From Octopus vulgaris (Eukaryota), in NCBI GenBank assembly GCA_951406725.2, contig OX597817.1, positions 6,572,001 to 6,636,000 of the forward strand: a DNA stretch of 64,000 bases, written 5' to 3'. Position 1 is the stretch's first letter. Every line of letters starts with the position of its first letter. This document shows positions 20,031-58,940 of this stretch, in pieces. The translations under genes were made by a program, and so were the position numbers. Below the pieces are notes generated by a model. It made no database searches. It was not told the DNA's origin and saw nothing but the letters and a program-made list of their open reading frames with translations.

Positions 20031-20482
20031 ATTATTCAAAGAAATTCCAACTCTGTTTTTCTTATGTTTCATTTATATTCTTTATAATATTAATGTAGAA
20101 TATAGAATTTATAGTATAAATAGCATATATAGTAAAATAAAATGAAGTATTGATTGTCTTATTGAATAGATGAAATATTGAATATCAAATATTAAGGGAC
20201 TAGTATACTTTCTTGTATTTAAGCAGTCTTCAATGTCCCAGGTTGTGACAGGAATGTTTCAACTGTCAAACACTCCTGTCACAATCTGGGACCTTGAAGA
20301 CTGCTTTAATGCAAGGAAGTATACTAGTCCCTTAATATTTGATATTCAATAAGATAATCAATATTTCATTTCTTTTTACTATATATATATATTATTTATA
20401 CTATATATTCTATATTCTACATTCATATTATAAAGAATATAAATGACACATAAAAAACAGAGTTGGAATTCCTTTGAATAAT
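20031..20482. mobile_element. ~450 bp palindromic element in (TA)n carrying an inverted pair of hammerhead-like motifs
   Basis: Arms are reverse-complementary from attattcaaagaaattccaactctg / cagagttggaattcctttgaataat inward to an ~8-nt loop at ~20260-20267. Confidence 0.9.
20288..20331 (+). ncRNA. Minimal type-I hammerhead-like motif (mirror copy at 20196-20239, minus strand)
   Basis: gggac-c-TTGAAGA-c-tgc/gca-a-G(G/A)A-AGTATACT-A-gtccc. Stem I gggac/gtccc, palindromic stem III AGTATACT, CUA triplet. The mirror copy has canonical GAAA. The core is a variant (C3->U, one extra nt). Confidence 0.55.
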
Positions 20483-20483
20483 T

Positions 20484-20533
<50 letters not shown>

Positions 20534-22215
20534 TAAATATATATGTTGCTCAAAACTGCTCGAAGAAAAGTAAAGTTCGTGCGTTTATGTGTGTTTGTGT
20601 GAGTTTACTTGTAGTGCTGTGCTACACAGCTGTCACGCGCTAAATGCCAGGTTCCAAATACTATTTTCTGTTTGGATAAAAATTATTGAACTTCAACCAA
20701 ATTACAACCAAAAAGGAATGTCAGGCCTCAGTCCATGTTATTGATGTGGAGACCTACACTTCAGAAAATATTGTCCGTTTAAAAACCAAACATGCTAAAG
20801 TTTTCAAAAACGTGGTCACAAGAGCTTACACAGCAAGACAAGATTACGAGGGTCGGACACAAAAAGTTTTTGTGTCTGTATTAGAAAATGAATGCAATAC
20901 ACACACAAAAAAGAAAATTCTTATATGTAAAAATAAATGGTGTAAACATTAAACTACATTTGGATACGGGTAGTGATATTTAAATCATAAATCGGATACA
21001 TAGAAAAAAGTCGGGAAACCGCTGTGGATTGGGAAGAAGCTTCTTGCCACACAGCCAATGAAAACGAGTGATCGATACCGCATTGATAGATAAAGATTCT
21101 TTAGTTGTGTATTAAGGTTACCACTGGCTTTGTGTTAAGAAAATATCTCAGCAATTCGTGAAGCCAATTACAGAAAAAAATTGATGTTGGCCTCCATTTT
21201 GGATTAAATACATTTTCCTCTTCAGCCAATCCATCATCGACATTGCCAATGCCACTTGCAAAGGAAAGTGACAGTGGCGAGGGGAAAGCTTCCCAGTAAA
21301 TGTGTGTAAAATGGGTGAATGTGGGGAAAATGGTTAGGATAAATATACAAACTCTAAGCCTGTATTTGGTGATTAGAAGGCAACAGCTGGGAAAATGTTC
21401 ACGCCTTTGGTAGTCAAATTGATGCTGAACCTGCGGGCTTCAATTATTGGCCCTAGTTGATGTTTTCCTCGTATAAAGAGGACGGACTGCATCATTCCCG
21501 TGTTCACATATTTTGTGAACTTTAAATACTCTTATCTCATTCCGCCCTCCTCACCCCTTCGTTATCATCATGCCTGTGGACCCCCACTCTACTCCACCCC
21601 AAGCAAGTGGCAAACTTTGTAATATCCCTTCATTTGATTCCCCTATGGCAAATAAAGGGAAAAGGAAAACAATATTACTATTACTAATATAATATTGCCC
21701 GTGTAATTAGCAGCAGCAGCAGCAGCAGCATCTAGCAACAAACAAGAAGTGATTCATAATTGATTTGTAATTCTTATAAGACCAACTACCATAATAATTA
21801 AAGGTACCATGATTTCCCAGGATACACTTCTTATTGATATTGCCAATCAGTTATATGAGATATTAGGTGAACGTCTGAAATATTATGTTAAATAATAATG
21901 ATATGAAATAAAAGAATAAGACCAGAAAAAATAAACGTTGAATGTACTGTTTGCAATAGAGGCATGCATTCCAACGATTTATATTTTATCAGTTTCAGAT
22001 TGATGTGAAACAAAATCGTAGAAGACATGACATGAAAATAAATGGCAAATTGTTGCAATCAAGATCACAAAACATTTAAACATCTCCTGTATCGTTTCTA
22101 CTCCTCAGTGTGCCATTTCTTATAATGATAATCATTCTTACTGACAGAGGCACCAAGCTTGAACTATCTAGAACTGGGTAGACGATAGCATCGATTGTAT
22201 TACTTATTCACTTAT

Positions 22216-22355
22216 ATCTTTTACTTGATACAGTCAATAGACTGCAGCCATGCTGGAGCACCGCCTTGAGTTTTGAGTCGAACGAATCGATCCCAGCACT
22301 TCTTTTTTTAAGCGTGATTCTTATTCTCTCGGTCTCTTTTACCAAACAGCTAAGT
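22216..22355 (-). mobile_element. SINE family A 3' part
   Basis: gactgcagccatgctggagcaccgccttg...ttattctctcggtctctttt. Confidence 0.8.
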
Positions 22356-22359
22356 ATTC

Positions 22360-22930
22360 CTTTTTATCTTCTCTTTCATTTGTGTATGTTAAATCGTATC
22401 TAGTTCAATGCTTCCTATGTAATTGTATATCTGGCTTTGGTCTAATTCTTTTATTTCATTTACTTTATCTAGTGTGATGTTGTTACTCTTAACTAGTTAT
22501 CATCTTTTCAATGTTATTTTGGCACATTTTTTCTAAACCTCATTTCATGTTTATTTCTTTGGTAAATCCACGTACTGTTCGTAGTCATATGTCCAGCTGT
22601 TTATCATTTGTAGCGTACAATTTTAGATCATCCATATACAAGAGATGGCTGATTGTTTGGCCGTAACAGTCGTCTCCACATTAAGTTCTGTTTAGCATGA
22701 CAGATAAAGGTGTCAGTGCCAAGCAGTAAAAGAGTTGAGAGAGCGTATCTCCCTGGAATATTTCTCTTCTAATGGGGATGGCTTTGGTTTTTATGAGTCC
22801 TTCTTTTGTCTGGAGCTATAACACTGTCTGCAATTTGTTCATGGAATGTTTTATATAGTTTATGATTATTGGTGTTACTTTGTTTATGGCTAGTGTTTCT
22901 AGGATCCTTGAGTGGGGAACACTATCAAAA
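22360..22930 (-). mobile_element. R4/Dong-clade reverse transcriptase fragment, decayed
   Basis: Minus strand FDSVPHSRILETL..., IPIRREIFQG(fs)DTLS, ISHLLYMDDLKLYATNDKQL, GLEK(fs)CAKI. Confidence 0.85.
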
Positions 22931-23008
22931 CTGTATAATATAAAAGTGCTTTCTCTCCTGAAACTGAGCATATACACCCACAGAAACACACATACAGAGA
23001 GAGATTCT

Positions 23009-23072
<64 letters not shown>

Positions 23073-23867
23073 TGAATAGTAGTAGATCAGCGACAGCGAT
23101 TCTTAGAGGCTATTCTATCAACAGTATCTTCAGATAGAACGATAGTTGCAACTCCGCCAAATTTAGTACTTGAGCCATGGGAAAAAAATAGAGGCAGAAT
23201 TGTCGTAGTCACTTTGCGAATTGAGACTAACGGAAGAGAAGAGAAATTGTCGTTGAACAAAAATGGCATACAAAATAGATGAAGATTATCTCAATATTCA
23301 TTCACAACGGAATATTTATGATCTTGTGATTACGTAACGTGGTCCTGAGATTCAATGTCGGTGCTCTGAACTGTGAAAATTATGTCTGTATGACAAGCAT
23401 GAATCGGGTGCAGATACCAAGTGTCATATGAATGTGATGATATTTTTTCACCATATAAAATTCCATACATTAAATCAAATATTACCAGTGGACAGTAGAT
23501 AATAGTTAAAGCGCCGAAAGAAGTAAATGTCGACAGATAGCTACTAACCCAGAAATTGCTAGGTTATCCTTATTGTATTTCTATGTATTCAGATATGTTT
23601 GCTTATGAATAGTGCTTCAATGTAATCGAATAGCTCCAACCCTTCAAAATCACTAACCTTGTGCCAAAATGCACAACCATTTTAAAACGTTATCAAAGAC
23701 CAGATTCGTATCCAAGCAAGATTTCACTCAGGTATTACATAAACCTGAAATAGTGAAAATCTCGAATGATATTCATTTTATTTTTATACCATCAGTCACA
23801 TTTTGATACTTTTCTCGAATTTTTTTATGAGGAATATCGTGCTAAAGGGTGTAAGTCTTGAGAATAT

Positions 23868-24072
23868 AATCCTTTCTACTCTAGGCACAAAGTCTGAAAT
23901 TTGGGGGCAGATTAGATCGAAACCAGTACTCAAATGGTACTTAATTTATCGATCCCAATATTATGAAAAGTAAAGTCGATCTCGGCGGAATTTAAATTCA
24001 GAACGTAAAGACAGACGAAATACCGCTAAGCATTTCGCCCCACGTGTTAATTATTCTGTCAGCTCGCTGCCT
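23868..24072 (-). mobile_element. SINE family B, tail type 2, full length with ~19 bp TSD
   Basis: Family B body. Flanks taagtcttgagaatataat (23852-23870) and taagtgttaagaatataat (24073-24091). Confidence 0.9.
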
Positions 24073-24423
24073 TAAGTGTTAAGAATATAATAGCCAAATA
24101 TATTTTATATATTATTTGAAATGCCTGATTACATTTTATTGGAAGTAAATGTATAAATTGTACGTAATTATTGTGAGTTTATCACCCGTATGAACACCGA
24201 CTTCGTCACAGGCGTGGTTTGAAATCAAAGCGTAATTCAAGTAAACTAGCTACTCATTTATTAGTATTTTATTCCCATAATCATAATCAGCATTTCGCTG
24301 TTAAGCGTGTTGAAGAGCACCGACAATAACAGTATTTTCAAACATTTTAAATGAATTGTAAATAATTTCGAAAAGTATTACAATTACACTCACAAAAATG
24401 CAGATGCTTAGCTGATATTTGGA

Positions 24424-24792
24424 TACTCTTTTACTTGTTTCAGTCTTTTGATTGCGGTCGTGCTGGAGCACCGCCTTTAGTCGAACAAATCGACCCCAGG
24501 ACATATTTCTTGTAAACCTAGTACTTATGCTATCGCTAAGTTACGTGGACGTAAACACACCAGCATCGGTTGTCAAGCGATGCTGGGGGGACTAACACAG
24601 ACACACAAACACACATACACATATATATATATACATATTTACGACAGGCGTCTTTTCACATTCCGTCTACCATATCCACTCACAAGGCTTTGGTCGGCAT
24701 GAGGCTATAGTAGAAGACAGCTGCCGAAGGCGCCACGCAGTGGGACTGAACCCGGAACCATGCTGTTGGTAGCAGGCTACTTACCACACAGC
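24424..24792 (-). mobile_element. SINE family A, near full length
   Basis: Reverse-complement match to 3017-3429. Confidence 0.9.
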
Positions 24793-24805
24793 ATGGTGGT
24801 ATATA

Positions 24806-25023
24806 AAATGTGACCTCGTGAGTACCGTTGGCGATTTTTTCCTCTGTCTTCCCTTCTCGGGATATTTCCTTCTCCTATGTTTCCGACGAAGAGCTCCGCT
24901 CGAAACGTTAAACCCCATTTCTTCCCTTCTTTCCTGAGCGTCCAATAATACTATATTTGTTCTACGTCCTCGCGTTGTTGTGTTTTTTTTTTGTTTTTTT
25001 TTGTTTTCTTGTTTGGATTAACT
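24806..25023 (+). mobile_element. Penelope pLTR-like short repeat with hammerhead-like motif (24879-24913)
   Basis: gttt-CCGACGA-a-gagc tcc gctc-GAAACGTT-aaac. Ends ggattaac followed by TA repeats. Homologous to 30906, 33035 and 40380. Confidence 0.75.
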
Positions 25024-28000
25024 ATAATATATATATAGTTTTCAAGAGCTGTAGTATATTAGCTTCCATTTGACAAGTGTGTATCGGTATTTGTGACAGC
25101 GAATTGAAAACAACGGGGCCCCGAATGTCTTTTAGAAAGAGAAAAATTGATTGTTTCTTTTCCCCAAAAACAACAGTTTAATTATATACCTGAGCTAATG
25201 CAAGTTACATTTGTCTGTGTTACTGTGAGCGCAAATTATCAAGTCAACCTACCAAATAATATGCTGCTCAACCAATCAATCATTTATATCTCACTCATGG
25301 CGCTGCATGTTTCATGTGCAAGGCATATATTTTTCATAAACTACACAAATCGATAACTTACTATCAGAGGAACATTTTGCAATACAGTAATAATTTATTC
25401 TATGGACTTCAACAAAGTTTTCTACTTTCGAGTGTTACTAAGAATGTTAATAGACGACTCAAGACTATGGAGAAGTATGTTTCAAGATGCAACGTAGTGG
25501 GTTCGTAACATATATCGCTTCTCTTTACCTCTGTGTGTGTGTCTGTGTGTTTCTTTGTGTGTGTATCCCTGTGGATTTCAGTTTAGTTAGGAATATTACA
25601 TATATATGAAATTTTCTCACACCATGGGTACGTGCAGCTAAAGTACAAGATAAACATTTATTTTATTATAAACAAACGTTAGCTTTATGACAATATTTTC
25701 ACTTCATTCAAGAAAAATAACTTCGTTAAAAATGTAATTTATACTTTGTATATAACCAAACATTGTATTTTACAATGTGATGACGGTAACTACTTATCTG
25801 TTATGAACATGTCAGTAAGTAGTGACAGATTGATTATTACATAACGGAAGAAAACTACGATGTATAATATGTTTGCTTTAAACATGATAATGGCCGATAT
25901 AAGAAAGCAAAACTAACATCTTTTAATCGTCAGATTTGCAATATCCATTTCAAATACCTAGATGCGATGAGAATATTATTCGACACATTCGACACATTAA
26001 TTTTAAGCAACGAATAATAAACAAACGAAAACAACGAGAATCCATTATTTGGTTGCTTGATATGCCAGAAATTGCAGCAAATCTTTCCTAAATTACACTC
26101 GACTCTTCTAGCAAGGCAAGTACGGAAATGCATATTAAATTATACACGATAAATAATTGAAATAACAACCATAATTGAAATGACAATGGTCGGGGCGGGT
26201 GGAAAAGTATACCCGAATTTAATGGGACTTTTCATCCTTGATAATTTGGCTCTCTTTCCACAGCTCTGTACTACATTCAGCTGCCCCATAAGAGTATTTA
26301 AACTGAAAAGAGTTTTGAGCAATAATACAGCCATGTACGCAAACATTATTCTTTTTCTATGTGTAGTTCTTTCGCTCAATATATGATCTAGTATTGGCAT
26401 ATAAGTTCGTGCTATTGTTATGAAAGCTATCACTTAATATATCGACCTCGTGTATTTTCATAGACATCTGCAGCAGTAATAGTAAAAGAAATTCCGTTCT
26501 CAAGATACAAATTCAGGTACATGATTCTATTTTCTGGGAAATAATATGTTACATTACCTATCGTAATAAAGCATGTTTTTCAAAGAAATTACTTAAATTA
26601 TTCAACTAATAATAACTCAAACCTGATATGTTCACGAATTTCTGTTATCTAAATCGACATGCTGTTCGCTTCACCACTTAAGTGTTCCTGTATTATTGGC
26701 TATCCAGGTATAGCGGACACGATGAAATATAATAAAGATCCAATTTGCGGAATGAAACACAAATATTGTGCTACAAAATGAATAGCTCAAATTAGTAGTG
26801 AGGATACTACATAATGGGGGAGCTTTTAGTATGCCTTTATTATCGAGTTCAAATCATCGGCAGTATGTATTTTGGACAGGAATATGTTCCAAGAAAATCA
26901 TTCACTGATATCTAATAAAGATACGTTTTAATTTCACTTATTGTTATGAAATTATATCATTTGAATATCTGTCGTAAAAATGATATCACTATATCACATG
27001 ACTTTATTATACACAAAGCACAGCTTAACATTTTAATTATGTCTTTACCAGTGAAAAAATATCTTCTGTAAATTTATTTACTGGCAGAAACATTAACATA
27101 TAATTTACTATTTGAACTTTAAATGGCATCTCTTTTAAAAACGATATTGCATTTACAATGGCATATTCATTTTCAGACCAATTCACCATAGTTAACAGAA
27201 TTCACCAACGAAACATTCTTCGGTCCCCTATCCTGGTCTCCGAAAGTTTAAACTAACTTTGCTTTTTATACTAGGGTAATAAATACTTTTTTTTATTCTT
27301 AACGCCGATACGTTCTGTTAACAAAATTATCTCGTATAAACCATAAAGACCCTGAGAACATAGAAACAACGTGTTGACGATTAATATACATAATTTATTA
27401 ACCAGGTGGATGTAACTTATTTCTTTCAAGCCAGATCAATTATCCAACACGGCAGTATGGGTGGCTTTTATATTTATCCGCAAGATTTCAATAAAAATAT
27501 GACCGGTAACAGTGACAGACAATTTAATAATTAATAAATTTTAACACTATTTTTGTTGCTAGCTGACAGGTGACATTAGAATGTACAAATTGTAATTGAA
27601 TGTCTTGCTAAACTATATTGCCAAATAATTTCTGTTTAATTATATCGCACATTTTCCTTCGTGCTTTATGGTAAATATTTTACAAATATATATATTTTTT
27701 TTTTCAGTTTAAAAAAAATATGTATTGTGGGTCAAGTTATTTGAATTCTACTGAAAGTTTAACCGAATCTAAGATTTTTAAAGTTATGATATCTTTCGGA
27801 GTTTAATTATTAGATTTTCATTATTAGTTGCGAGGAAACGTCAGGGTCACTGATTGAATTCTTAGAATATCGGACAAAATATAACTTGCCATTTCGCTAC
27901 AGCCATTTACTTTCAGACTTTATATATTTGTGAATTATCTCTGCTTACGATGTCGACCGAATAATTATCAGTCAATATAACTGTCTGTGCCGTCTCCCAA

Positions 28001-29557
28001 AGTGCTAATGATAGAATCAATAATGTCAATGTGAAACACCTACAGTTAATTGGGGTTGTGAAGACATACAGAGAAAACAATGAAATCAAATCAGGCGGAT
28101 ATCGCACCTATTCACTTCACCTTGTCTAGAATCGTCACAAATTTAGAAATTCCACATTAGGTGAGGTGAACAGGTGCGATTAGAGTAGAAGTTTAAATAA
28201 ATATCGTTGATTTCCCTCGTGGCAAAACACCTAATTCCTAACATATTAACAATGATCTTCGAATTATATCTACCATATCATACACTGAGGTTAGTATCCA
28301 AAAGTATGTCTATGCTTTAGATATTGAGAGATCTGCAAACTCTGTCATAGTGGGGTATTGCAAACTTTAACTCCAAACGAAAACCCATGAAACAATAATA
28401 ACTAAATTTGCAGCCAATTCTTTTCAATTGTATTCGGTTATCTGATGTCAACAACAAGATCAAAGTATAAGACACTGGATTTAGATTATGAATTCCTTTG
28501 TGTCTGAGTTCATTATGGAACCAGAAGGATTGCTACAATAACTAAAATATAATGTTATAGAAATAAGCGAAACGGCACGTACAATCGAGGTACATGTTTG
28601 AAAAGTCACCTGAAGAGATATATGTGAAACGATAATGCATGACAATTGGTTGTACAATGTCACCTTTTAGGCACGGGTGCATGATGATTCGAAACAATCG
28701 TAGTGGTCCTGAATAGTCTCGTAACTTCGATATTCTCTCCCTCTCTCGTCATATTGATACATACATACATGCAAACATGCAAACATACATATATGCGTAC
28801 GTATGTACATACATAATAATACATACATACACGTATATGTGTGTATAGGAGCATGAGATAAAGCGTGGAATAACAGTTGCGTGATAAAAGTAACTTGAAT
28901 AGTTCTACAGAGCTTCTTTCATGCATATACTTATATTCTAAATTTAACTTAATGCGCAGCCAAAACAAATGAGTTTAAGGATTTGAATTTTGTATAGTAT
29001 ATGTATAGAGGAGAGGAGGCAGGTGTATGTATATCGGTAAAACAACAAAGTAACGAATGTTTCAAAAGAAGTCTTTTAGAACTATATATATATATATCAA
29101 AATCAACTTGTCTATTATACTTAAAAAGAAAATATCACATTTCATATTGAATAATTTTAGCATATTTTATAATGAACCTGCGAACTTAAAGATAACAATG
29201 AAGTAGAATAAAAAAAAATACTTTCATTGTGACAACAAATAAAATACTTAATATACCGAATGAATTATAAAATATAAAAAAACCCTTTGATATGCATAAC
29301 CTGATTGAGAAAAACATGATATACAAAGGACATATATTATTGCTATATAGTAATGTACTTTAAAAATGAGATAAAACCGACATAGGGCAATATAGGGATG
29401 AAGATACAGGAGTAGTACATAACAAAAATGGACACGGTGTTATGGAAAAGATAATAGTAATGATGATTGATGAAGAGAAAAACTTTATATTACAGTATTA
29501 CTATTGTTTGTGAATGTGACTCCAAAGTTAATAACGTGATACACATCTCTATAACTG

Positions 29558-29591
<34 letters not shown>

Positions 29592-29594
<3 letters not shown>

Positions 29595-29796
29595 CACTTT
29601 TTTGCGTAATAAGAAAAGAACAAGTCTATGTAAATATTAGAGCATTTATAGATAAAAGGTCTTAGAGCTGTTTCTAGGAAACAGCTGTAAGATATTCTGT
29701 ATATCCTAGAAACAGCTGTAAGACCTATCTATCTATAAATGCTCTAATATCTACACATCCTTGGTTTCTTATCTTATTACGCAAAAAATTCTTATA
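29592..29796. mobile_element. ~200 bp palindromic element next to (TA)n with hammerhead 3'-half motifs (GAAACAGCTGTA-agac)
   Basis: ttttttgcgtaataaga...tattagagcatttatagata...ggtcttagagctgtttctagga is the reverse complement of tcctagaaacagctgtaagacc...tatctataaatgctctaata...tcttattacgcaaaaaa. Confidence 0.8.
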
Positions 29797-29950
29797 TGCA
29801 CACACTGACATTGAACCAACGTTGAACCCTTTATTCGCTGTATTACTGAATCTGGATCTTAACTATGGTCTATCTATGGCATTTATTCAGCATTACCTGA
29901 CACTTTTGGGTCTCAATGACACCATTATCTCTTATAACCTCAACTCCTCG

Positions 29951-30862: not shown

Positions 30863-30905
<43 letters not shown>

Positions 30906-30909
<4 letters not shown>

Positions 30910-31086
30910 ATCCAAACAAGAAAGCACACAAAAACACAACAACGCGAGGACGTGGAACAAATATAGTATTAGTGGACGCCCAGAAAAGAAGGAGGGTTTA
31001 ACGTTTCGAGCAGAGCTCTTCGTCGGAAACATAGGAGAAGGAAAGATCCAGAGAAGGGAAGACAGAGGAAAAAATCGCCAACGGTA
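30906..31086 (-). mobile_element. Penelope pLTR-like short repeat with hammerhead-like motif (30996-31030)
   Basis: Minus strand gttt-CCGACGA-a-gagc tct gctc-GAAACGTT-aaac. The 3' end ggattaac abuts (TA)n. Confidence 0.75.
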
Positions 31087-31216
31087 AACATAGATATATA
31101 GATAAAACACATATGTATATACATACAGATATAAAGAAATTAAAACTCCAGTTCCAGTGGGAGAATACTAGCATCATGCTGGAAACTTTATTTGAATTTA
31201 AATCAAACTGTCTAAC

Positions 31217-32962: not shown

Positions 32963-33034
<72 letters not shown>

Positions 33035-33037
<3 letters not shown>

Positions 33038-33300
33038 TAATCCAAATATTAACAAAGAGAAAACACAACAACGCGAGGACGTGGAACAAGTATAGTGTTA
33101 TTGGACGGTCAGGAAAAGGGAGAAAGAAGGAAGACTTTAACGTTTCGAGCGGAGCTCGTCGGCAGAAACATGGAAAAAGGAAAGGGCCAGGGGAAGGGAA
33201 GACATAGAAAGAAAATCGTCAACGCTACACACGCGGTCACATATTGAAATGACCGGAAGGGAATGAGTGAAGAAAAAGTTCTTTAAAAAGACAGGAGAGT
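33035..33300 (-). mobile_element. Penelope pLTR-like short repeat with hammerhead-like motif (33136-33169)
   Basis: Minus strand gttt-CTGCCGA-c-gagc tcc gctc-GAAACGTT-aaag. The 3' end ggattaac abuts (TA)n. The 5' boundary is approximate. Confidence 0.72.
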
Positions 33301-34192: not shown

Positions 34193-34284
<92 letters not shown>

Positions 34285-34374
34285 ATATATATATCTATTT
34301 ATCTACCTATCTGTCTGTCTACATATCTGTCTGTCTATCTATCTATCTATCTATCTATCCATCTATCTATCTAT
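34018..34374. repeat. (CTAT)n microsatellite with (CTAA) interruptions
   Basis: Read directly from the sequence. Confidence 0.98.
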
Positions 34375-36100
34375 CTTCCGCGGTTGGATCGCTGCCTTGT
34401 ATAGCGGCATCCGATCGGTGATTCGGGTGAACGGTCACCTGTCGAAACCGTTTGACATCACGCGTTCGGTCCGTCAGGGGTGTCCCCTGTCGGCGCTTCT
34501 GTATGTATTGACTCTCGAGCCGCTACTGCGGAAGCTGGCGACGCTGAGGGGCATCCCACGGGAACTGGGTTGCGGGACGAGCGCGTCGGCATATGCGGAC
34601 GATGTCACCGTCATAGTGTCGAGCGACAAACACATCAAGATGATAGGCGAGACACTAAGAAAATGCGAAACGGTGACGGGAGCAAAGATTAACCCGGAAA
34701 AGTCAGTGGGTTTGCTACTCGGCACCTGGAGAACCAAGCCCATGCCATCCGACTTCGGCTCAGTAGTGGGACGCTGGACGGACGGACCGGTTAAATTGCT
34801 CGGGGTCTGGTTCAGTCCGGACCTCCAAATGGATAAGAACTGGGACGAGATCACGAGTAGAGTGGTCGCTCTCAGCCAAACATGGGCCGAGAGAAAGCTG
34901 TCTCTAAAAGGCCGGGCGGAGGTGGCGAACGCGTACATCGCATTCGTCATCGATTACCGCCTGACCGTCGTACCTTGTCCCGACGCCACCATCACCAAAC
35001 TGGAACGCATACTCTTACGCTTCCTGTGGAAGGGTGGCGTTCCGATGGTGAGGAAGTCCATTTGCTGTCAACATCCGTTGAATGGAGGACTGGGCATGCC
35101 GTGGTTGATGATGCGCAGGCATGCGCTGAGACTGCGACATCTCTGGAACTTCATCGACGACGGTGAACAGGTGTGGGCGCCGTTTGTGAGGCGCGACTTC
35201 CCGCAGCTCGTCTCACTGACCGAACTGCAAACGTGGATCAAAAAGAGACCGAAACTGGGCGATTGGCACCGAGAGTGTCGCCATGCTCTACAGCAGCTCT
35301 GCCGACCGGTGTCAAACTTGTGCAACTTACAAACGACTAAAGCGTTCTATAGAGGACTAGTGGAGGGGAGGTCCGACGACACACTCGGGGCAAACCTGGG
35401 CGTCGACGAGGAATTCCTAACCCGCCTGTTCAGGACGACGTTCGGGCCGGGGCCTATGGATAACTTCCAGAAATCCCTGGCTTGGCAGTGCTATCGAGAC
35501 GCACTACCTGTTCGAGAGAAGAGCTACAGACACGGTTCGAAAACCATCACGGGACCGACCTGCCCGAGATGCGGTCAGAGCGACGAAACCGTTCTGCACG
35601 CACTCGTGCAGTGTCCAGATATTTCAGAGCTGTGGTCCTTCGTCGAACAGCTGTTGTCACGTGTAAGTCGGGCTCGCCTATCGGCCGAGTCTATCGTGAA
35701 TATTGTTCCACCACCTTCCTTTAAACGGGAAATGAAAACGGTTTTCGTTATGCTGATGGCTATGGCGAAAGAACGTGTGTGGTGGACGCGTTTGAAAGGA
35801 CTGCAAACAAACACCTTCCTCTCTGGTCAGTCTCTCGTCAACTTTTTCAAGTACCACTTGAAAAGGAGGATGAGAATAGAGAAGAAGGCTTTGTCGAACG
35901 AATGTTTTAATAAAAAGTGGGTAAAAGTGGCATAAATGGTCAGTATGAAAGACGACACTATTTTAAGCATAAATCTGTAACCAAAAGAGACAACGAGAAG
36001 TAAGGCGACTTACTCATGTGCTTTTTTCGAATTGTCTGAGGTTACCTTGGTCCTTTTTGTAGGTTTTTCTTTCCAAGGCTACACCTAAACTGTGAACCTT

Positions 36101-36304: not shown

Positions 36305-36404
36305 TTATCTATATATATATCTATCTATCTATTTATCTACCAATCTGTCTGTCTACATATCTGACTGTCTATCTATCTATCTATCTATCCATCTATCTAT
36401 CTAT

Positions 36405-38377
36405 CTTCCGCGGCTGGATAGCTGCCTTGTACAGAGGCATCCGTTCGGGAATTCGCGTGAATGGACATCTATCGAGACCTTTCAACATTGCACGTTCGGT
36501 CCGTCAGGGATGCCCCCTCTCGGCGCTTCTATACGTATTGACTATTGAGCCACTACTGCGGAAGATGGCGACGCTGAGGGGCATCCCGCGAGAATTGGGA
36601 TGCGGGACGAGCATGTCTGCATACGCGGACGACGTCACCGTCATAGTGTCAAGCCACGAGCACATCGAGCGGGTCGGCGAGACACTGAAAGACCACGAAG
36701 AGGTGACAGGACCAAAAATCAACCGGGAAAAGTCAGTGGGCTTACGGCTCGGCACCTAGAGAAGCAAGCCCATGCCGTCCACTAGTACCTCCGTCGTGGG
36801 ACGCTGGACAGACGGCCCGGTTGAGTTCCTCGGGGTCTGGTTCGGTCCGGACCTCCAAATGGAGAAGAACTGGAACGAGATAAAGAGTAGGGTGGTCACT
36901 CTCGCCCGGCAATGGGCCGAGAGGAAACTGTCCCTAAAAGGTCGGACGGAGGTGGCGAACACATACATCGCGTCCATCATCTACTACCGCCTGACCGTCG
37001 TACCTTGTCCTGACCCTACCATCACCAAACTAGAACGCATTCTCTTCCGCTTCTTGTGGAAAGGATGCGTCCCGATGGTCAGGCGATCCATTTGCTGTCA
37101 ACACCCGTTAAAAGGAGGGCTGGGCATGCCGTGGTTGATGATGCGCAGACACGCGCTTAGACTGCGACATCTCCGGCTCTATGTAAACGACGGTGAACAG
37201 GTGTGGTCGCCGTTTGTGAGGCACGCGTTCCCGCAGCTCGTCTCCATGACCGAACTGCAGTCGTGGATCAAAAAGCGGCCTAGGAAGGGCGAATGGCACC
37301 GCGAGTGTCGCGTTGCTCTCAAGCAACTCTGCCGTCCCGGGTCAACCTTGAGTGACTTCAACACAACCAAAGCATTCTATAGGGGATTAGTGGAGGGGAG
37401 GTACGATGACGATCTTGGGGCAAACCTGGGCGTCGACGAGGAATACCTGACCCGCCTGTTTGAAACGACTTTCGGGCCGGGACCTATGGACAACTTCCAG
37501 AGATCCCTGGCCTGGCAGTGCTACCGAGAAGCGCTACCCGTTCGGGATAAGCTCTATAGGCATGGCACGAGAAACACGGGGCCGATCTGCCCGAGATGCG
37601 GGCAGAGCGACGAAACCGCTCTGCACGCAATCGTGCAGTGTCCAACAATCTCCGACCTGTGGGCTTATGTCGAACGACTGCTGTCACGTGTGGGACGTGT
37701 CGGTTTATCAGTCGAGTCTATCTTTAATATCGCCACGCCTCCTTCCTTCAAACGGGAAGGAAGAGCTATTTTTATCATACTTGTGGCTATGGCGAAAGAA
37801 TGTATCTGGTGGACGCGCCTGAAAGGATTAGAGACAAACACTTTCCTCTCTGGTCAATCTCTCATCAACTTCTTCAAGTATCACTTGAAGACGAAAGTGA
37901 GAGTAGAGAGGCAAGTTTTGTCTAGTGAATGCTTTAAAAAAAGATGGGTGAATGTAGCAAGGATGGCACGTTTGAATGACGAGGCCACCTTGACTATGAT
38001 TCTATGAACCGTAAAAATTAATACAGAGAGTTGCTTATTTGCAAAAAAAAAAGAAATATAACATGTGACTTCATTGACCGAGGTTACCGTTGTCTTTTCC
38101 GTAGGCTTTTCTTTCCACGGATAAACCTCACCTGTCCTCCCCTTTACACTTCACATTGACATTTCTGTGATAACGATCGCTATTGATCAATTTTTTTTCC
38201 TTTCCCCCTTTTTTTTGTTTTGTTTTAATTTTATCCCCCCTTTTTTGTCCTCTTTCTTTTCTTTTACGATCCCTTTTGATCGAAAACCAAACTGCCTTTT
38301 TTTTACCCCCAAAAGAAAAGCTCTACCTTGTAATATGTCCTGTCTGTGTGCAGCCCTGTGTGGCTAATAAAGAAACA
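36405..38377 (+). mobile_element. Tx1/L1-clade LINE copy 2, 5'-truncated, different subfamily
   Basis: Same motifs across ORFs 36427-36759 and 36772-38007, with one TGG->TAG stop at 36757-36759. Ends aataaagaaaca followed by (tatc)n. Confidence 0.95.
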
Positions 38378-40312: not shown

Positions 40313-40379
<67 letters not shown>

Positions 40380-40381
<2 letters not shown>

Positions 40382-40585
40382 CCGCGTGTGTATCGTTGGC
40401 GATTTTTTTCCTCCGTCTTCCCTTCCTTGGATCTTTCCTTTTCCTCTGTTTCTGACGAAGAGCTTCGCTCGAAACGTTAAACCCTCCTTCTTTCTTTCCT
40501 TTCCTGACCGTCCAATAACATTATACTTCTTCCACGACCTCGCGTTGTTGTGTTTTCTCTTTGTGTTTTTATGTTTGGATTAACT
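40380..40585 (+). mobile_element. Penelope pLTR-like short repeat in (TA)n
   Basis: Homologous to 24806, 30906 and 33035. (TA)n on both sides. Confidence 0.78.
40448..40482 (+). ncRNA. Minimal type-I hammerhead ribozyme motif, best-preserved copy
   Basis: gttt-CTGACGA-a-gagc ttc gctc-GAA-ACGT-T-aaac. Canonical CUGANGA and GAAA, 4-bp stems I and II, palindromic ACGT stem III, predicted cut after GUU at 40478. One extra A after the core. Confidence 0.7.
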
Positions 40586-41176
40586 TTATATATATTTATC
40601 ATCATCATATATATAAATTAGAAATAAGCTACCACAATATTTCACTTTTGTCTGATGTTTCCCGCATGCGTAGAATACTACTGAGATAGCAGGCGTAAAT
40701 AATACGAGACCACCACCAGAAAACCCGATATGGTACAAACAACAGATAAACAACATTATTTCTCAAGAAAATTCCCCGCTTTCCAAAATGCTAAAAGTGA
40801 AACACTACGAGTGTGCAGCTTTTTCAAAGATTGAAAAAAGTAACAAATGAATTTGATGTGGAGAGTGAGAAAATTAAAATATTGAGTTGTTTTGTTGGTG
40901 AAATTATAATCTCCTGTATCGCAAACATAAGAATCGGAAGAAATTGGTGAAAAAAATATTGCGGGCGGGGGAACGCAAATGTCACCACGGACATGCTAGA
41001 ATGATTGGCGTAATTTTCCGTAAATTAAAAAAAAAAAATTTATGCTTTCAAGAGAGCAGAAACCGAAAGAGAGGTGAAAGAGAAAAAGGTGACATTTACT
41101 TTAAAGTGAGAGCAGAAGGTGAAAGAGAGGAGACAGTGAAAGATGTATGTATGTGTATATGAAATGAACGTGTGTG

Positions 41177-50763: not shown

Positions 50764-50832
<69 letters not shown>

Positions 50833-50931
50833 GTATAACTCTCGGTTCATTAGTTACACTAAATGCCGACAATAGAGAATGTAGAATGGGAATAATTAAA
50901 TAAATATATAAATGTATACACACACACACAC

Positions 50932-51002
<71 letters not shown>

Positions 51003-51005
<3 letters not shown>

Positions 51006-51235
51006 CTTTTATTCTTTTTATTCTTTTACTTGTTATGGTCATTTGACTGCGGCCATGCTGGAGCACCGCCTTTAGTCTAGAAAATCGTCCCCAGGACTTT
51101 TTCTTTATAAGCCTAGTACTTATTCTATCGGGCACTTTTCCCGAACCGCTATTTAGGGGGAAATAAAGGCACCAACATCTATTGTCAAGCGATGTTGGGG
51201 GGACCAACATAGATACAAACATATACAGATACGTA
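51003..51235 (-). mobile_element. SINE family A 3' half
   Basis: gtcatttgactgcggccatgctggagcaccgcctttag...tgtcaagcgatgttggggg. Confidence 0.88.
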
Positions 51236-51312
51236 CATAAATACATATATACATATATATACATATATATACATATATATACATACATATATACATATAT
51301 ATACATACATAC

Positions 51313-51344
<32 letters not shown>

Positions 51345-53494
51345 TCATGGAGAAGTAAATACAGAAATATATATACATATACATTACTTTTATCATCAAT
51401 TTTCCATACCGGAAACCAACGAAACCAGCGCAGGTAACAAACATCTTTGGTGACGTCCAGCTGTGACTAAAGAAGGTGCCAAATGAGTGAGATCCAAATG
51501 TTTCTAAATATGCCATCCAAAACCTAACTATGTTTGCAATGTTTCAGAAAATCTTCTTGTGTTTGTATTGTTTTACGTTTCAATAAATATTTTTCTTTCA
51601 GCTCTAGAGTCACAGACAGCATTCATACTAATATCACCCCCATCAGATATTATTACTTTACTTTAAAAAACGTACCGTTCTGCATCGGCAAAACTATTTC
51701 AGTATGAATTAAAATGTATGATAACATGCCTGAGATAGAAGTGAATGTTTACCTTCAATAACAAACATTAATTAATCACTTCACAGCAAAGCAACTTATG
51801 TATCATATGTATTGATTTTTAAAGTGAGGATAGTTTCTCATATGTATGTTGAGTGAGATTGCGATCTCGTAAACAGTCCTAAATTTTCCAATGGTTTTCT
51901 TCATAACGTAAAGTGATTTTGATGATCAGGGACATGTTTTGCTAAAAGTTGTTCCCAAAACGGCATTTTTTATTGATATGTCAAATAGCGATAACATTCA
52001 TTTGACAACAATATTTACTAAAATATTATCCTCACGCTTTAATTTATTGTTTCTTGCCTAACTTGGTATTTATCGTACACCCTTTCATTTACAAAATATA
52101 TTAGCGTTTGCTCTGTGTATGTTTGCTTTGACAGACAGATCTTATTACCATTTATGAAGTAGTTCTTTGATCTGACAATGATAATAAAAAAGGAAATATA
52201 ATACATTCCCCGGCGTGTATGAGCATGCGTGTGTTATTGTGTTTGATTGTTCATATGTCAATCGTATCAGATTCCACGACAATATTAAAAAAATATATTG
52301 CACTCATTATAAATGTATAGATAAATATTCTAGTTAAATGAACAAAAATTAGAAATATCCTGTGTGGCTGATAATATTTCTGGACCTAAATAGAAGCAAT
52401 CAGACAACGAATATTGTTCAACTATATCCGGGAACAAATATTTTAGAGAAAAATAACAGTCTCTGATTCAGTTATTCTGATAGATATATATATATTTTAC
52501 TACCTTGTCAAGGAGATGCTGATGATGTCCGTGAAAGCTAATTTTATTTAGAGCTTTTGAGGCTAGTAAATAGAAAGGAGAAATTTGTTCCCAATCTGGA
52601 GACTTGAGCATCAGATTTTAAAAGGACTGAATTTGTCTAAACACACAAAGATGAGACGATAGTGTTAAACCTGTTGAGAACTCCAAACACAAAGTGACAG
52701 AACAAATACCGGAGAAATACTAACAATTCCACAGATTTACTGTCCCTGGTTTATCAATTTATTTAATCAATCCGAACATCTGAAAGACAATATTGATCTC
52801 ACCATTAGTTGAAAAGTCTAAACAAAATATCGCTTTGTATTTTATGCTACCCTCAAATGATTCTCTCAATGTAAATGAAAAAAAAATGATAAAAGATGGG
52901 GGAAAAAGCAGAATACAGATCGAAAATAGAAAAATGGGAGAGATATAGAAAGAAAGTTGAGACAGAATAATACCCCAGAAATGGAGAAGACGATGATCGT
53001 AACAATAACAGGAGTAAATATTTGAATTAGTAATGATACGAGAAGAGAAATGGAAAATTAGGGGTGAAAAAAGACAAAAAGACGACAGACATCTCTCTAT
53101 ATGCCACTCTATATGCAAGAGCTTATATACAATTATTCAGGTGATTGTGGTATGACATATAAAATATGGCATACCACATACAGTTGTACGTGCCATAAAT
53201 ATACCTGTAGCTAAGCTTTTCAAATAAGCATCGTAGTTAAAACACAGTGTTGTCTCTGGTAAATGAAATGAAGTGTAACACAATGTTTTACTCGATTTCA
53301 CATCAAGAATATTTATTTTATAAACATCAGAGAAGTTTATTTTATTCGTTGTAAAGAGAAACAAAACGAACGTATAATAAATTCGGCAAGTAAATATGCA
53401 TTTTCATATCAGTAAATCTTTTGGAGATGTATAGTAATTCACTAAAGTATCATGTCTTCAGATATTTCTCATATTTTGCTACTTATAGCTATAC

Positions 53495-53832
53495 TACTGC
53501 AAAGCTTCGGCAATTTTAGCCGAAAGAATCTACCCCAATACGCATGTATTTTATGCCTGGTACTTATTTTATTGGGTCTTTGCCGAAGCCCTAAGTCTAA
53601 GGACGACACACACCAACACCAGTTGTCAAGCGGCGGATGGGGACAAACACGGACGCAAACACACACACTCACACACTTACACAAGCATACACACATACGA
53701 CGGGCTACTTTCAGTTTGCGTTCAGTAAATCCCTTTACAAGACTTTGGTCATTTCGAGGCTATAGCAGAAGACACTTACCAAAATTCTGAACTCAGAATC
53801 ATATGGCTGGGAAGCAAACTTCTTACCACACA
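53495..53832 (-). mobile_element. SINE family A, decayed
   Basis: Reverse-complement match to 3017-3429. Confidence 0.75.
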
Positions 53833-54415
53833 TGTAGCGGTATAAATTGCAAATAAATTTACAGGAGTATGTTAGATAAATATATGTTTAGTTCCAATAG
53901 ACACCATCGACATACCACAGGTCAATCTCAACAGAGATGCTTTCTTATTGGCTCAGAATTCTGAAAATCAAAGTTTGAACAGCTGTAACATTTTTCTGGA
54001 ATAAATGTATAACAAATTCGGATTCAGCGTTAAAAATCACATCTATATGGTATATTGCCAAAATACATTTAAGATAATTGCAAACAGTGACGAAAACCAC
54101 AAAGATAAACACAAATTCGCAAAAACATTCTGAAAATATCAAAAAATAAGGAAAGTCATGAATATTTAAATAGTAGGCTCAATCACAAGTCCTCCAAATG
54201 TTGAAGTATTTTTCTGGGACGGAATAGCTGTCCCACCCTTCGATATTTTATTGTATTCAACATTCTCAAACACATTCAAGTTGCACTAAAACAATTACAA
54301 TCTCTCCACTTAAATCATACCTCTCCCAAAATTTATTATTTTCGTTATTCTAGCATGTGGAGAGACATTCTAGGCTCAAATTCAAGCGCTGGTTGAAAAT
54401 CACCTGACAAAAAAA

Positions 54416-54745
54416 TTCTGGGGTCGATACATTCAACTAAAAATTCTTCAAGGCAGTTCTCCAGAATACCGCAGTTTAATGATTGAAGAAGTACAAAGGA
54501 AAAAAACACACAATAAAAAAACGAAATATATCACTGATGTGGTTTTGACTTGACTTAAAAAATAATTCTGGGTTCCATACAGTCGTCTAAAAATAATACA
54601 AGATGGTTCCCCAACATGGTCGTAGTCTAATAACCGCAATAAGTAAAACGGAAAACAAATTTCTGGGGTCGATGCGTTCAACTAAAACTCTTCAAGACAG
54701 TACCCCAGTATGGCAACCGACTAATGACTGAAACATGTAAAAGGG
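54416..54745 (+). repeat. Three tandem degenerate copies of a SINE family A-like 3' tail
   Basis: Units begin ttctggggtcgat at ~54416, ~54566 and ~54661, each followed by aactaaaa...caagg...ccagcatgg-like...taatgactgaaac-like sequence. Confidence 0.65.
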
Positions 54746-56049
54746 GAACAAACGAAAAATTACCGAAAAATATAAACGAGGGGGTTTTGTCCACTTTCAC
54801 ACTTTAACTATGGGGGTTTTGGTCTACATCCATGCGGAGGACTTGCTCCGTTATCTAGTTAAGATTGTAGATGTTTGCTTTTTTTTTATAAATATTGAAT
54901 TTCTAATCTGCTAATTTGTTTTTGGATAAATCTTAACTTTGTGCTATAAGTTTCTTACTTTAAGAAATATTTAATTTGCAATGTCCTGTTTATCGCATTA
55001 AATGCATATTAAATGCTTAAAACTATAAAATATGTGTTGTTTACTCGTTTTCTTTTTTTGTCATTGAGTTGGTTGTGAAGTATGCTAAAAAGAACAGGTA
55101 AATAAGCCTTAAATCACGAACCCGTACAGTGTACTTTTTTTGTTTTTTGCATAATCGTATCAAGTCCTATGTACAGAATAAAATTCACAAAAAACGTCTG
55201 GAAATTCCAAAATTATATATAATGTTATGAGGGGTCTATATGGCGTTCTTAAAGCCCTGGGAGGAGGTAAAGACATGGATCACACCCCTTCCCGTATTTT
55301 TGGTGGGGTGGGATTCTAGAGAAACCCAATTTTTCGACTTCTGAGATTCCGAATCTGCAAAAAAATCACAATTTCAATTTTGTTCTACACATTTCACCAA
55401 AAGTAAATTCTAAAAAATTGAAAAATGGGGAGGTGAATTTGGGGGTGCTTATGCTTCATTAGCTTTACAGTGGATCTGCCCCTACGAAAACTATAAAATT
55501 CTCCATGATTTCATGTCATTGAAGCTAAGATATACTTTGCTTTTAAAATAAAAAGTAATTTAGATCTCAACTTGATTGGTGGCGTGACTTACTCTCCTAT
55601 AATTTTTATGTAAACTTTTTTCTACTCGATCAAATCTCAATTTTCTTATGCCAAAATGTAACTAGGAACCAGCTCTCTTCAAAAATGTTAACAGTTTTCA
55701 ATATGGTTAAGAACTGAATTGGAGACAAACTCTGAAATATACTGCGTGTGAGTAAACTGCGGCGTTAAAAATATTATTCAACTACGGTAGTAGCTGAATG
55801 ATATACATATACAATAGTATAATACAATATATATATATGTATATATGTATATGTATGTAGATATATATATAAATATATATGGAAAGAGAGAGAGAGAGCG
55901 AGAACAGCTTGATTCAGAATCATGCATTTTAAATTTGCCAGTGGGAGCGGGGCACACGCATGCGTATACGTTTGTCAAAGTTGTGTTCGTTGTACCTTTG
56001 TGTCTTATTTTGCGCATGATTTTTCCCTTGCGAGCGCGTTTATATGTCT

Positions 56050-56097
<48 letters not shown>

Positions 56098-56895
56098 AGA
56101 CATATAAAGAATGTTTGCATGTATGTGCATTTATGTCTGTCTTTGATTAAGTGTGCATATATGTATCTGTGCGCCTGGGATGACATGCGTGTGGTTGTAC
56201 GTGTGCTTTCGTATGCCACTATGCATAACTGAGTGTTTCTATGTATTGAATGTTCATTTTATCTAAGTGCTTTTGAAATAATATTGTCACTTGCACGACT
56301 GGTGTAAAAAGTATTTGAATAATTCATAATTTGTCCAATCTACAATCGATACATATCTGTCTTTGCCTGCCATATTGTCTCAGTTTATGCCCATTATTTT
56401 CTCTGTCTGCTTTCTATCAGCTCTGTATTCTGCCTTTTCGCCACACAATTTGTCAACATCTCTCTTTCTCACCCACTCTTTCTTTCCAATTTTCTCTTTC
56501 CCTGTCTTCCTGCCTATGTTTAAGTTACTTCCTGTTAATTATTATTTTTATTATTTTGTTTTTGGTCCTCTTACTGATTCACGCCTGCCATTCTGCTATG
56601 TTGTTTCAATATATATTTATCTGTGTGGCTATTTCTCTCTGCATCTGTCATTCTATCCCTTTGCATTTACCTGTTTAATGACACCATTTTCTATCCCGTC
56701 CACTGTCTGTCTGTCATTCTCCCTTTCTCTATCTCTCTCTCTCACTTACTCACTCACTCTGGTTTTTCTTATTGTCTTGTTTTAGTTCTCTCTATATCTC
56801 TCCCTTTTCTGCCTTAGTTAATATGTCACCCCCAAACTATTTCAATTTGTCACAATATATTACTGTATTTTCTTGTATGCCTGTCAATTAGACAG

Positions 56896-56957
<62 letters not shown>

Positions 56958-57022
56958 TGTGTGTATGTGTGTATATATTTGCATAATACATATATGTATA
57001 TATATATCAATATATATATATA

Positions 57023-58158
57023 GGGAGAATTCACAAAAAACAAAAGACGAAGGCAGGTGGTATGGACTACAAACAGATGTATTAGTTTAAAGGTCGGGAA
57101 GTGAAAGAGTCTTTAACGTTTCGAGAGTACGCTCTTCCGCAGAAAGGAACATAGAAAGAAGCAAGGAAAGAAAATAAAGAATGTGTAGTGGCTAGCGATC
57201 TATCATGGCGAATGCCGGACAGAGGTGTCACGCAGGATACCTAGAAAGAAGGGGAGATAATAACGTAGTGGTGATCCCAAAATGAAGGTGCGCGTGCCTG
57301 TATATAAGAGAGTATGTTTGTGCGTGTGGGAGAGGGCTGGTGACCTTGACGTGTGCGAGTGTGTATGTACAGGTGTGTGGATATGGGTATGGGAAGTGGT
57401 CAGTGCTAGTGTGTTCGTGGTGGTGTGATGTTATGTGGTATTGTGTGGTATGGTAGTGTACGGTGTAGTGGTGTGTGGTGTGGTGTGATGGTGTTGGAAG
57501 TTGGGGGTGGCGACTGTGGGGAAAGCAAGTGTGGGGTGTTGGTTAGGCTGAGAGTGGGGTAGAGGTGGGTTATGTGAGTAGGCTGAGGGTGGGGTAGATG
57601 TGCAGTATGTGTGAGGGGATGTAAGGTGTGGATGTAAGGAATGTGCAGTATGTGGGAGTGGATGTAAGGTGGGATGTGATGGGTAGGGAAGGCGAGGATG
57701 GATTGTGTAGGGGTGGGGTGGGGTTACGAGGGAGGGGTTACGATGGAAGGCATAAGAAGTAGGTATGTAAGACTGAACAGAAGAGAGGAGTGTAGGAGTG
57801 AAGAGAAGAAGTAGGAGTCAGAGCAAGAGAGGAGAGGTGGGTGGAAAGAAATAGGTGTGAGGGGGAGAAGGAGAGTTGAGCCCATGTGGCGCAAAGGAGC
57901 GAAGAGAGAAGATTAATCCCTGTTCACCGAGCAAACGGGAGTCCGGATAACCCCTGTGCAAGGACAATCCGAACACAGGCAAGTGTTGCAAAGAATTACT
58001 GGTAGAGCGGAAATAACGTGAGACCGTGTTGTCATTGCCGAGTCGGATGTCTCGGAGGTGTTCTGCGAACCGGTCAGCTATGCAGCATCCCGAGAAGGGC
58101 AGAGACAGCAGGAGATGCAGTAGATGACATTGGTAGAAGTGCAGGTGAAAGAGTTGGA
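57023..58158 (-). mobile_element. Penelope-like element 3' portion: GIY-YIG endonuclease remnant, pyrimidine-rich 3'UTR and pLTR with hammerhead-like motif (57111-57146)
   Basis: Minus strand SNSFTCTSTNVIYCISCCLCPS [YIG segment deleted, frameshift] IADRFAEHLRDIRLGNDNTVSRYF...RLLGEQGLIFSLRSFAPHGLN. Motif cttt-CTGCGGA-a-gagc...tc-GAAACGTT-aaag. The 3' end abuts (TA)n. Confidence 0.88.
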
Positions 58159-58940
58159 TGGAAAAAATAGTCAAGGTAGAAAATGCTAAAATAATCTTAT
58201 AAAAAACGCTTCAGTACAGGTTTCAGTAATCGAGACTTTTTCAACTGTTAATATGGAAAACAATTAAATTTTGGAAAAATTAAAAGATTTTTTAAATGAA
58301 TATTTACATTAATTTAAATATAAGGGACATTTCCCTTGTTTCGTCCTGTCTCTGACTCTCTTGTTTACTCTTTTAGGTTTGAGGTCGTTGTGAATTATTG
58401 GCAGAGAAGAAGAAGAAGAAGAAGAAGAAGAAGAAGAAGAAGAAGAAGAAGAAGAAGAAGAAGAAGAAGAAGAAGAAGAAGAAGAAGAAGAAGAAGAAGA
58501 AGAAGAGGAATGCGGGAGTGCCATGATACTATTAGGATTTTAAATGGTCAAGTGACCTGAAAGTGACTTGATTCAGGGCACTTGACCATTTAACATCCTA
58601 CTACTATCATAGCGCTCACGCATTATTTTTCTAACTTCTTCTCCTCCTCCTCCTACTCCTTCTTCTTTTTCCCTACCAAGAATTCACAACGACCTCGAAT
58701 CCAAAGAGTATACCAGAGAGAGTGAAAGAGAGAGAGAGAGAGAGAGAGAGAGGCGGAAACAAGAAAAATGCCCTTTTGTATTTGATTACTATACAAATAT
58801 TCTTTTAAACAACTTTTCTTTTAATTCTTCCAAAATTTGATTTAACAGTTGCAAAAATCTCGATGACTGAAACCGGTACTGAAATGCTTTTTACAAAATT
58901 ATTTTATCATTTTCTACCTTGACTTTTTGACATTTTTCCA
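58159..58940. mobile_element. ~780 bp palindromic element with outward-facing hammerhead-like motifs (58212-58247 minus, 58846-58881 plus)
   Basis: Arms are reverse-complementary from agtcaaggtagaaaatg / cattttctaccttgact to taaatggtcaagtgacctgaa / ttcagggcacttgaccattta around a loop at ~58562-58570. Two-arm consensus cag-TTGAAAA-agtc tcgat gact-GAA-ACCGGT-A-ctg. Confidence 0.88.

Follow-up and report, generated by a model that had tools for sequence, protein, structure and literature searches.

What are the three long palindromes that lie within a 64,000-nt stretch of the Octopus vulgaris genome (GenBank assembly GCA_951406725.2, contig OX597817.1, positions 6,572,001–6,636,000 of the forward strand; hereafter the window)? 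An earlier note, made from the sequence alone, held that they are not DNA transposons and that their arms are 5'-truncated pseudo-long terminal repeats (pLTRs) of Penelope-like elements (PLEs), joined 5'-to-5', carrying outward-facing minimal hammerhead motifs and inserted at (TA)n. This core stands: all three palindromes, here called P1, P2 and P3, are almost certainly stubs of PLE insertions. We give a probability of about 60% to the whole account, namely that the PLE stubs were likely built anew at each insertion by two-ended priming at (TA)n. Such hairpins are ordinary PLE debris, and automated pipelines could mislabel them as MITEs (miniature inverted-repeat transposable elements). How PLEs form tandem and inverted structures is named as an open question in PMC8557442 (statements on cited papers refer here and below to the available portions of their texts).

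The arms are the ends of Penelope-like elements

In a self-BLAST of the window, P1 appears as an inverted match at 19951–20544 (E 4e-151), P2 at 29589–29797 (E 1e-50) and P3 as the matches 58165–58442/58635–58928 and 58463–58671 (E 2e-46 and 2e-42). The three had been described as sharing no obvious similarity, and no cross-match between them is among the self-BLAST matches listed. The genome that was searched comprises 2.8 Gb in 227 contigs, and the arms proved to be high-copy repeats with 1,256, 1,524 and 1,971 first-look candidates, the best 40 of each being scored. The question whether the arms adjoin PLE open reading frames (ORFs) is answered by their relatives, since all three connect to ORFs for reverse transcriptase (RT) and the GIY-YIG endonuclease (EN), in the case of P2 to remnants. 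Three copies of P3 (L014–L016; labels of this kind denote loci of our survey) have 1.35 kb in common on their upstream side, which leads into an RT-thumb/EN frame of a PLE. A search with this P3-linked frame found many 784-aa frames of a very young sister, family A, whose ORF2 (784 aa) matches RVT_1 (E 3.5e-8) and GIY-YIG (E 3.8e-4) and is preceded by an overlapping ORF1 of 446 aa, measured stop to stop. The tandem unit of family A is 4,433 nt long, and its pLTR corresponds to the P3 arm at 78%. The P1 family joins a GIY-YIG ORF in L038, which led to the young family B, a sister of P1 with ORFs of 454 and 775 aa and a unit of 4,271 nt, matching the P1 arm at 71–72%. Families A and B are 48% identical. 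ORF1 of A and B overlaps the RT ORF in another frame (L127, L128, L173), a possible frameshift, and had no Pfam match above the cut-off. P2 extends through a 3' untranslated region (UTR) of ~1.2 kb into EN and RT remnants (L140, L141), with GIY-YIG at E 0.006, below the cut-off, and RT motifs judged by eye. No intact ORF of the P2 family was present among 150 scored matches, and the P2-family ORF escaped tblastn with the ORFs of families A and B. A Pfam search of short ORF pieces gave nothing relevant.

Judged by motif and by eye, P1 and P3 are two-ORF, Neptune-like families with intact young sisters. A/P3 and B/P1 share with the Neptune clade a C-terminal GIY-YIG domain with CxxC between GIY and YIG, a CX4CxxC linker, DKG and GxKF motifs and TA targets. 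The Neptune CX2-5CxxC linker, which is common to Nematis too, and the CCHH-type EN are both present in A and B, while the resemblance of their RT to the alignment rows was judged by eye. P2, by its sequence features, is a decayed family of the Hydra clade as described in PMC8557442: its RT segment is like that of Hydra-1/2_Amil, its targets are (TA)n, and L140 and L141 display the CxCX5C linker, a GIY-YIG without CxxC, and a C-terminal CxxC plus CxH; the copies read lack the N-terminus, where the DKT and RWK motifs of the clade would lie. It differs in its long 3' UTR of ~1.2 kb and in a tail of ~135–140 nt, against 30–40 nt published. The families further present what is expected of EN-bearing (EN+) PLEs: a 3' end continuous with an RT and C-terminal GIY-YIG ORF (P1 and P3; remnants in P2); partial tandem units, direct or inverted, seen in families A and B as the 4,433- and 4,271-nt tandems and as inverted pairs; an optional tail past the pLTR end, taken from the element's own 5' region; and, by motif and between-family covariation, a putative minimal type I hammerhead in the pLTR.

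Anatomy of the palindromes and their hammerhead-like motifs

The palindromes lie where they had been reported, and the family tail continues beyond one end of each, so that the true elements are larger than first described. The left arm of P1 (20031–20266, minus strand) is the pLTR of an old Neptune-like PLE family, truncated at its 5' end; it reaches ~7 nt further at the apex and carries a tail of ~36 nt (19995–20030, minus strand, edges approximate), an optional extension past the pLTR end that the right arm lacks. Of 27 single-arm copies of the family, 13 have the same tail sequence after the TA end, as does one arm of L036. The right arm (20267–20484, plus strand) is tail-less and ends at a long (TA)n. 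In P2 the tail-less left arm (29594–29679, minus strand) adjoins (TA)n and retains only the 3' half of the hammerhead. It is followed by junction filler (29680–29700, plus strand) with a short copy of the neighbouring stem III segment (motif at 29678 and 29709). The right arm (29701–29796, plus strand) is the pLTR end of a Hydra-clade PLE cut inside hammerhead stem II, and it alone carries the tail of ~135–140 nt (29797–29936, plus strand). In 13 of 30 P2-family loci the far end of the tail lies at 115–138 nt plus a few bases. P3 consists of a tail-less left arm with an expanded (GAA)n, ~9 nt longer at the apex (58159–58570, minus strand), and a right arm (58572–58946, plus strand), the pLTR/3' UTR of a Neptune-like PLE, which matches the pLTR of the intact family A at 78%. 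Only the right arm has the ~34-nt tail (58947–58980, plus strand, right edge approximate), a sequence that full-length elements carry between the end of the pLTR and the start of ORF1. The (TA)n noted at the ends is present as long runs right of P1 and left of P2; P3 has only the element's own short TA.

Each arm was said to contain GAA followed by a palindromic word and A. The pattern is exact in three of the six arms (P1 left, P2 right and P3 right), and single substitutions interrupt it in the others, with GGA for the GAA core in P1 right and a mutated palindrome in P2 left and P3 left. For two of the three palindromes the earlier note also claimed stem I, core and stem II, and this holds for P1 and P3, P2 being cut inside stem II. 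The left motif of P1 (20196–20239, minus strand) has stem I GGGAC/GTCCC, a TTGAAGA core and a palindromic stem III with a mutated stem II; in the right motif (20288–20331, plus strand) the core GAAA is mutated to GGAA. The left motif of P3 (58212–58247, minus strand) has an intact U3-A8 core, TTGAAAA, and a mutated stem III palindrome, and the right one (58846–58881, plus strand) a mutated core and stem II and an intact stem III ACCGGT. Within the window the loose motif occurs 21 times against 15.1 ± 3.8 in 30 shuffles, which is not above chance, and Rfam gave no hammerhead among the best 150 of 214 window matches at E ≤ 10, a search that is uninformative for minimal motifs. The case for the hammerhead is therefore made from relatives.

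The majority sequence of each family (alignments of 29, 30 and 30 copies) holds the full motif, with stem I GGGAC/GTCCC and the TTGAAGA core in the P1 family and the TTGAAAA (U3-A8) core in the P3 family. Longer copies of the P2 family keep the whole motif with a CCGATGA core, lost from the window copy. In the P1, P2 and B families stem II was read with a mismatch at its core end. The stems of old and young sisters differ with compensation: AGTC/GACT against GGTC/GACC in stem II, GGGAC/GTCCC against TGAAC/GTTCA in stem I, and 8 nt against 6 nt in the stem III palindrome. This covariation, which had been proposed as a test, argues that the hammerhead fold was maintained in the source elements, and the predicted minimal hammerhead is a fixed part of each pLTR. 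A strict descriptor matched none of the six window arms, because these have decayed, and the ribozyme motifs of the window itself are probably dead. When seven motifs were folded as single-stranded monomers, z ranged from −1.8 to +1.0, no better than shuffles, so thermodynamic stability provides no evidence; stem III stays open in the two young motifs, as is expected of motifs thought to act as dimers (PMC4209133). In L136 (6312–6393) a tiny head-to-head pair of the family-B motif was also seen, 81 nt apart.

Mostly single arms and variable fold points

Do the palindromes move as units? The best 30 loci of each old family were classified, less two duplicates (L040 and L023); they are top-scoring loci and not a random sample. 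Single arms account for 73 of the 88, and 15 are two-armed with spans of 202–761 nt (P1 2/29, P3 4/29, P2 9/30); L013 and L025 are inverted as well and were left out of the 15 since their left end is damaged. The earlier note had suggested a possible class of non-autonomous, ribozyme-bearing hairpin retroelements, and had asked whether the loop position is fixed, as in an element that moves as a unit. It varies from copy to copy, with fold points from ~100 to >4,000 nt, and no apex junction recurred at many loci among the junctions read, as it would in such a unit. Nor were paired, fixed terminal inverted repeats (TIRs) of uniform length found in most copies, as in MITEs. The prevalence of single arms and the variable fold points together indicate neither MITEs nor a unit-moving class, and that part of the proposal finds no support; the hairpins were likely rebuilt at each insertion. 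The head-to-head form covers all sizes, the largest being two full-length arms with their ORFs back to back (L126), and the stubs are the short end of this continuum.

Some truncation points are preferred. In family A the 5' ends gather between about −218 and −232 (L181, L182, L191, L228, L232, L236, L240, L244), and in the P1 family ~20–30 nt before stem I (L032–L059, a sample biased by the search). These clusters may mark an RNA start or a splice acceptor; four runs of presumed-RNA contigs showed no start, end or clear joint.

One tail per insertion in young families

The exact 38-nt motif pattern of family A has 1,765 matches, and its reversed control none. By hand count, the first 100 matches include 44 that form 22 head-to-head pairs 189–5,098 nt apart and 2 convergent neighbours. 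Both ends could be seen in 46 two-armed insertions that we mapped. Family A contributes 33 of them, of which 23 were taken from the position-ordered list and 10 chosen from ORF matches, and family B the other 13, all from ORF matches; L211 and L212 were excluded with one end out of view. The tail is at exactly one end in 46 of 46, three ends (L194, L226, L228) having been called from alignment coordinates since the anchor missed them, and insertions with zero or two tails are absent. Exactly one tail is likewise seen in 14 of the 15 two-armed loci of the old families, and palindromes with zero tails number 0/46 in the young and 0/15 in the old families. Among 20 single-arm loci of family A, 12 have their 5' end in view and 10 of these are tail-less. 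By manually entered end points, the tailed arm falls short of its partner in 21 insertions, exceeds it in 18 and is within 20 nt of it in 7. The junctions are blunt or overlap by 1–14 nt in 27 cases, hold filler of 2–51 nt in 18 and could not be resolved in 1. An arm-length correlation was considered and rejected as a selection effect: it was significant in all 33 family-A pairs (rho 0.49) but not in the 23 position-ordered ones (p 0.19).

The two arms of an insertion resemble each other more than arms of different insertions do. In family A they differ by 0.76 positions within an insertion and by 3.63 between insertions (33 pairs, over 111 nt, of which 38 are fixed by the search pattern for most pairs), and in family B by 0.83 and 2.38 (12 pairs, L174 skipped). 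None of 20,000 permutations reached the observed value in either family. Target-site duplications are scarce, with a non-microsatellite direct repeat in only 2 of 40 insertions and an inverted flank match in 1; TATATATA stands at both ends in 39 of 40, a test that includes the element's own terminal TA. Between them, the strict one-tail rule, its independence from arm length and the variants that the arms share leave two models in contention. The tail rule can be read from many insertions in this genome, which has two intact families of very young age and a Hydra family with a long tail, and the near-identical intact families A and B could serve as donors for an in vitro test.

Two neighbourhoods were noted among these loci. 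In L215 (3204–3263) two palindromic insertions of family A abut with a reverse-complement copy of the tail between them, and in L213 the flanks of an inverted insertion (430–575 and 7320–7480) are in turn degenerate inverted copies, which suggests that the element inserted into the middle of an older palindrome.

Two-ended priming as the proposed mechanism, and its rivals

How would such pairs arise? According to the mechanism that we favour with slightly better than even odds, the GIY-YIG endonuclease would cut both strands in (TA)n. One cut end would be extended from a downstream start site to give the tailed arm, and the other from a start site 35–140 nt upstream to give the tail-less arm, both arms being copied from the same source transcript at the two offset sites. 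Each complementary DNA (cDNA) would stop early or at an RNA end, and microhomology or filler-type end joining would then unite the two free cDNA ends; mobility of the stubs themselves is not required. Two cDNAs, one primed from each cut end, agree with the single tail, the lack of zero-tail cases, the common source and the freedom of either arm to be longer, so that of the two routes left open earlier, fold-back or two-ended priming, the second fits best and fold-back less well. In PMC11167929 both strands are cut and extended by a purified PLE protein, for which a dimer is predicted; reverse transcription starts at two adjacent sites bounding the tail, and the protein-assisted hammerhead is dispensable for insertion in vitro. 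More tentatively, at chances a little below even, the PLE ribonucleoprotein may prime both ends of a double-strand cut, each from its own offset site on a single transcript, with the head-to-head form as its normal two-sided product. If this is true, the tail marks which cut end was primed at which start site.

Several points weigh against two-ended priming. In vitro, PMC11167929 found no start-site difference between the top and the bottom strand. Of the 46 insertions, 7 have arms that end within 20 nt of each other where 1.3 are expected (p 5e-5), the position-ordered subset has 6 symmetric cases in 23 (p 2.6e-4), and all three window palindromes are near-symmetric. Symmetric fold points are a direct prediction of snap-back, whereas two-ended priming accounts for them only if the RNA end is shared. 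Local snap-back does take place, as L032 and L058 fold back by 6–7 nt at the apex that window P1 and L036 also have. Among the old insertions, two are apparently two-tailed, L067 clearly and L033 partially, with a 25-nt tail fragment, and tailed single arms make up 29 of 73 in the old families, where partners were sought only within ~800 nt. The variants common to both arms are equally compatible with one cDNA, one RNA, one source locus or gene conversion at a later time, and half of the 46 insertions were chosen because both arms carry ORF sequence.

Snap-back draws on much of this. A tailed cDNA would fold upon itself, be copied back to the internal TA at the pLTR end and anneal to the target, with later asymmetric trimming of long hairpins in the middle. 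One tail and shared variants would follow at once, the excess of symmetric fold points and the mini fold-backs at the P1 apex would be accounted for, and self-priming has been proposed for inverted PLE junctions (PMC3846280). However, copying back from a tailed cDNA should never leave the tailed arm shorter, as it is in 21 of 46 cases, down to 142 against 4,265 nt in L234, and in window P3 it is the tail-less arm that reaches ~9 nt further. Tail-less singles prevail in family A, yet zero-tail palindromes do not appear in young or old families. We hold snap-back less likely as the general explanation, yet a serious rival; it may lie behind some symmetric cases. Far less probable is that some short symmetric hairpins are non-autonomous units, transcribed and re-mobilised whole. 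The apexes of window P1 and L036 do lie within a few bases of each other, and the fold of three family-A palindromes lies between about −220 and −232, but the junction letters differ, the tail is on the apex-holding arm in each and the junction is not shared. The 46 young junctions all differ from one another, and single arms stop at these same positions (−225 to −231 in L181, L182, L240 and L244; also P1 singles), which points to a truncation hot spot. As for MITEs of a DNA transposon whose TIRs bear hammerhead-like words by chance, the hairpin shape, the TA flanks and the frequency of the loose motif by chance would suit them; single arms in 73 of 88 loci, arms continuous with RT/GIY-YIG ORFs, the one-sided tail and the compensatory change between sister families leave this reading scarcely any credence. 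It is refuted by the ORF linkage, and no search aimed at transposases was made. Two-ended priming remains the reading that we prefer.

Relation to known systems

The architecture is already described for PLEs, and the three window families are further examples of it rather than a new class. Inverted 5'-truncated copies, head-to-head orientation, a one-sided tail and a (TA)n bias have been reported (PMC8557442, PMC3846280), and the insertion units of EN+ PLEs likewise comprise head-to-head pLTRs, heavy 5' truncation, partial tandems, a tail at one end and (TA)n targets. In the published descriptions the tail occurs "often" or "optionally" at one end, whereas here it was counted in 46 of 46 insertions, independent of which arm is longer, and the window copies differ in being ORF-less stubs. 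The literature consulted holds no tail count per inverted insertion and no proposal of two-ended priming for PLEs, though subscription reviews of 2005–2006, Repbase, Dfam and bioRxiv supplements may differ. Dual minimal hammerheads ~100–700 bp apart on opposite strands in Schistosoma mansoni were ascribed to truncated PLEs (PMC4209133). The metazoan PLE hammerheads of that study share with ours the short stem I, the palindromic stem III, the U3-A8 core (P3) and the prevalence of single motifs; the stem III palindromes here are 6–8 nt, and P2 and family B have CCGA cores. Non-LTR retrozymes (10.64898/2026.07.22.740005) are also non-coding, PLE-derived and equipped with a type I hammerhead, but they are head-to-tail tandem repeats, whereas the window hairpins are inverted pairs with variable fold points. 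This class was set aside, as the window copies and the related loci inspected are single or inverted. Recently active Penelope-like families in Octopus vulgaris are described in PMC13282606, where the words "hammerhead" and "palindrom" are absent from the available portion of the text.

Other repeats in the window and beyond

Four single arms of a fourth repeat family, each ending at TA, lie at 24823–25037 (plus strand), 30875–31090 (minus), 33005–33244 (minus) and 40367–40618 (plus). Three of the four contain a minimal hammerhead-like motif with a CCGACGA/CTGACGA core and ACGT in stem III, and the family is probably another PLE family. Further unrelated hammerhead motifs with an 8-nt palindromic stem III, from what would be more PLE families, occur in the flanks at L174:415 and L176:651. 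A decayed inverted repeat at 17695–18045 has (TA)n at its right end, and no hammerhead was noticed in it. Two tandem 1.7-kb copies, 34274–35955 and 36306–37982, are 82% identical; the first contains a long open frame, which we take to resemble the C-terminal half of a non-LTR (L1/Tx1-like) RT. Finally, a perfect 70-nt palindrome centred on (TA)n is found at 56039–56108.

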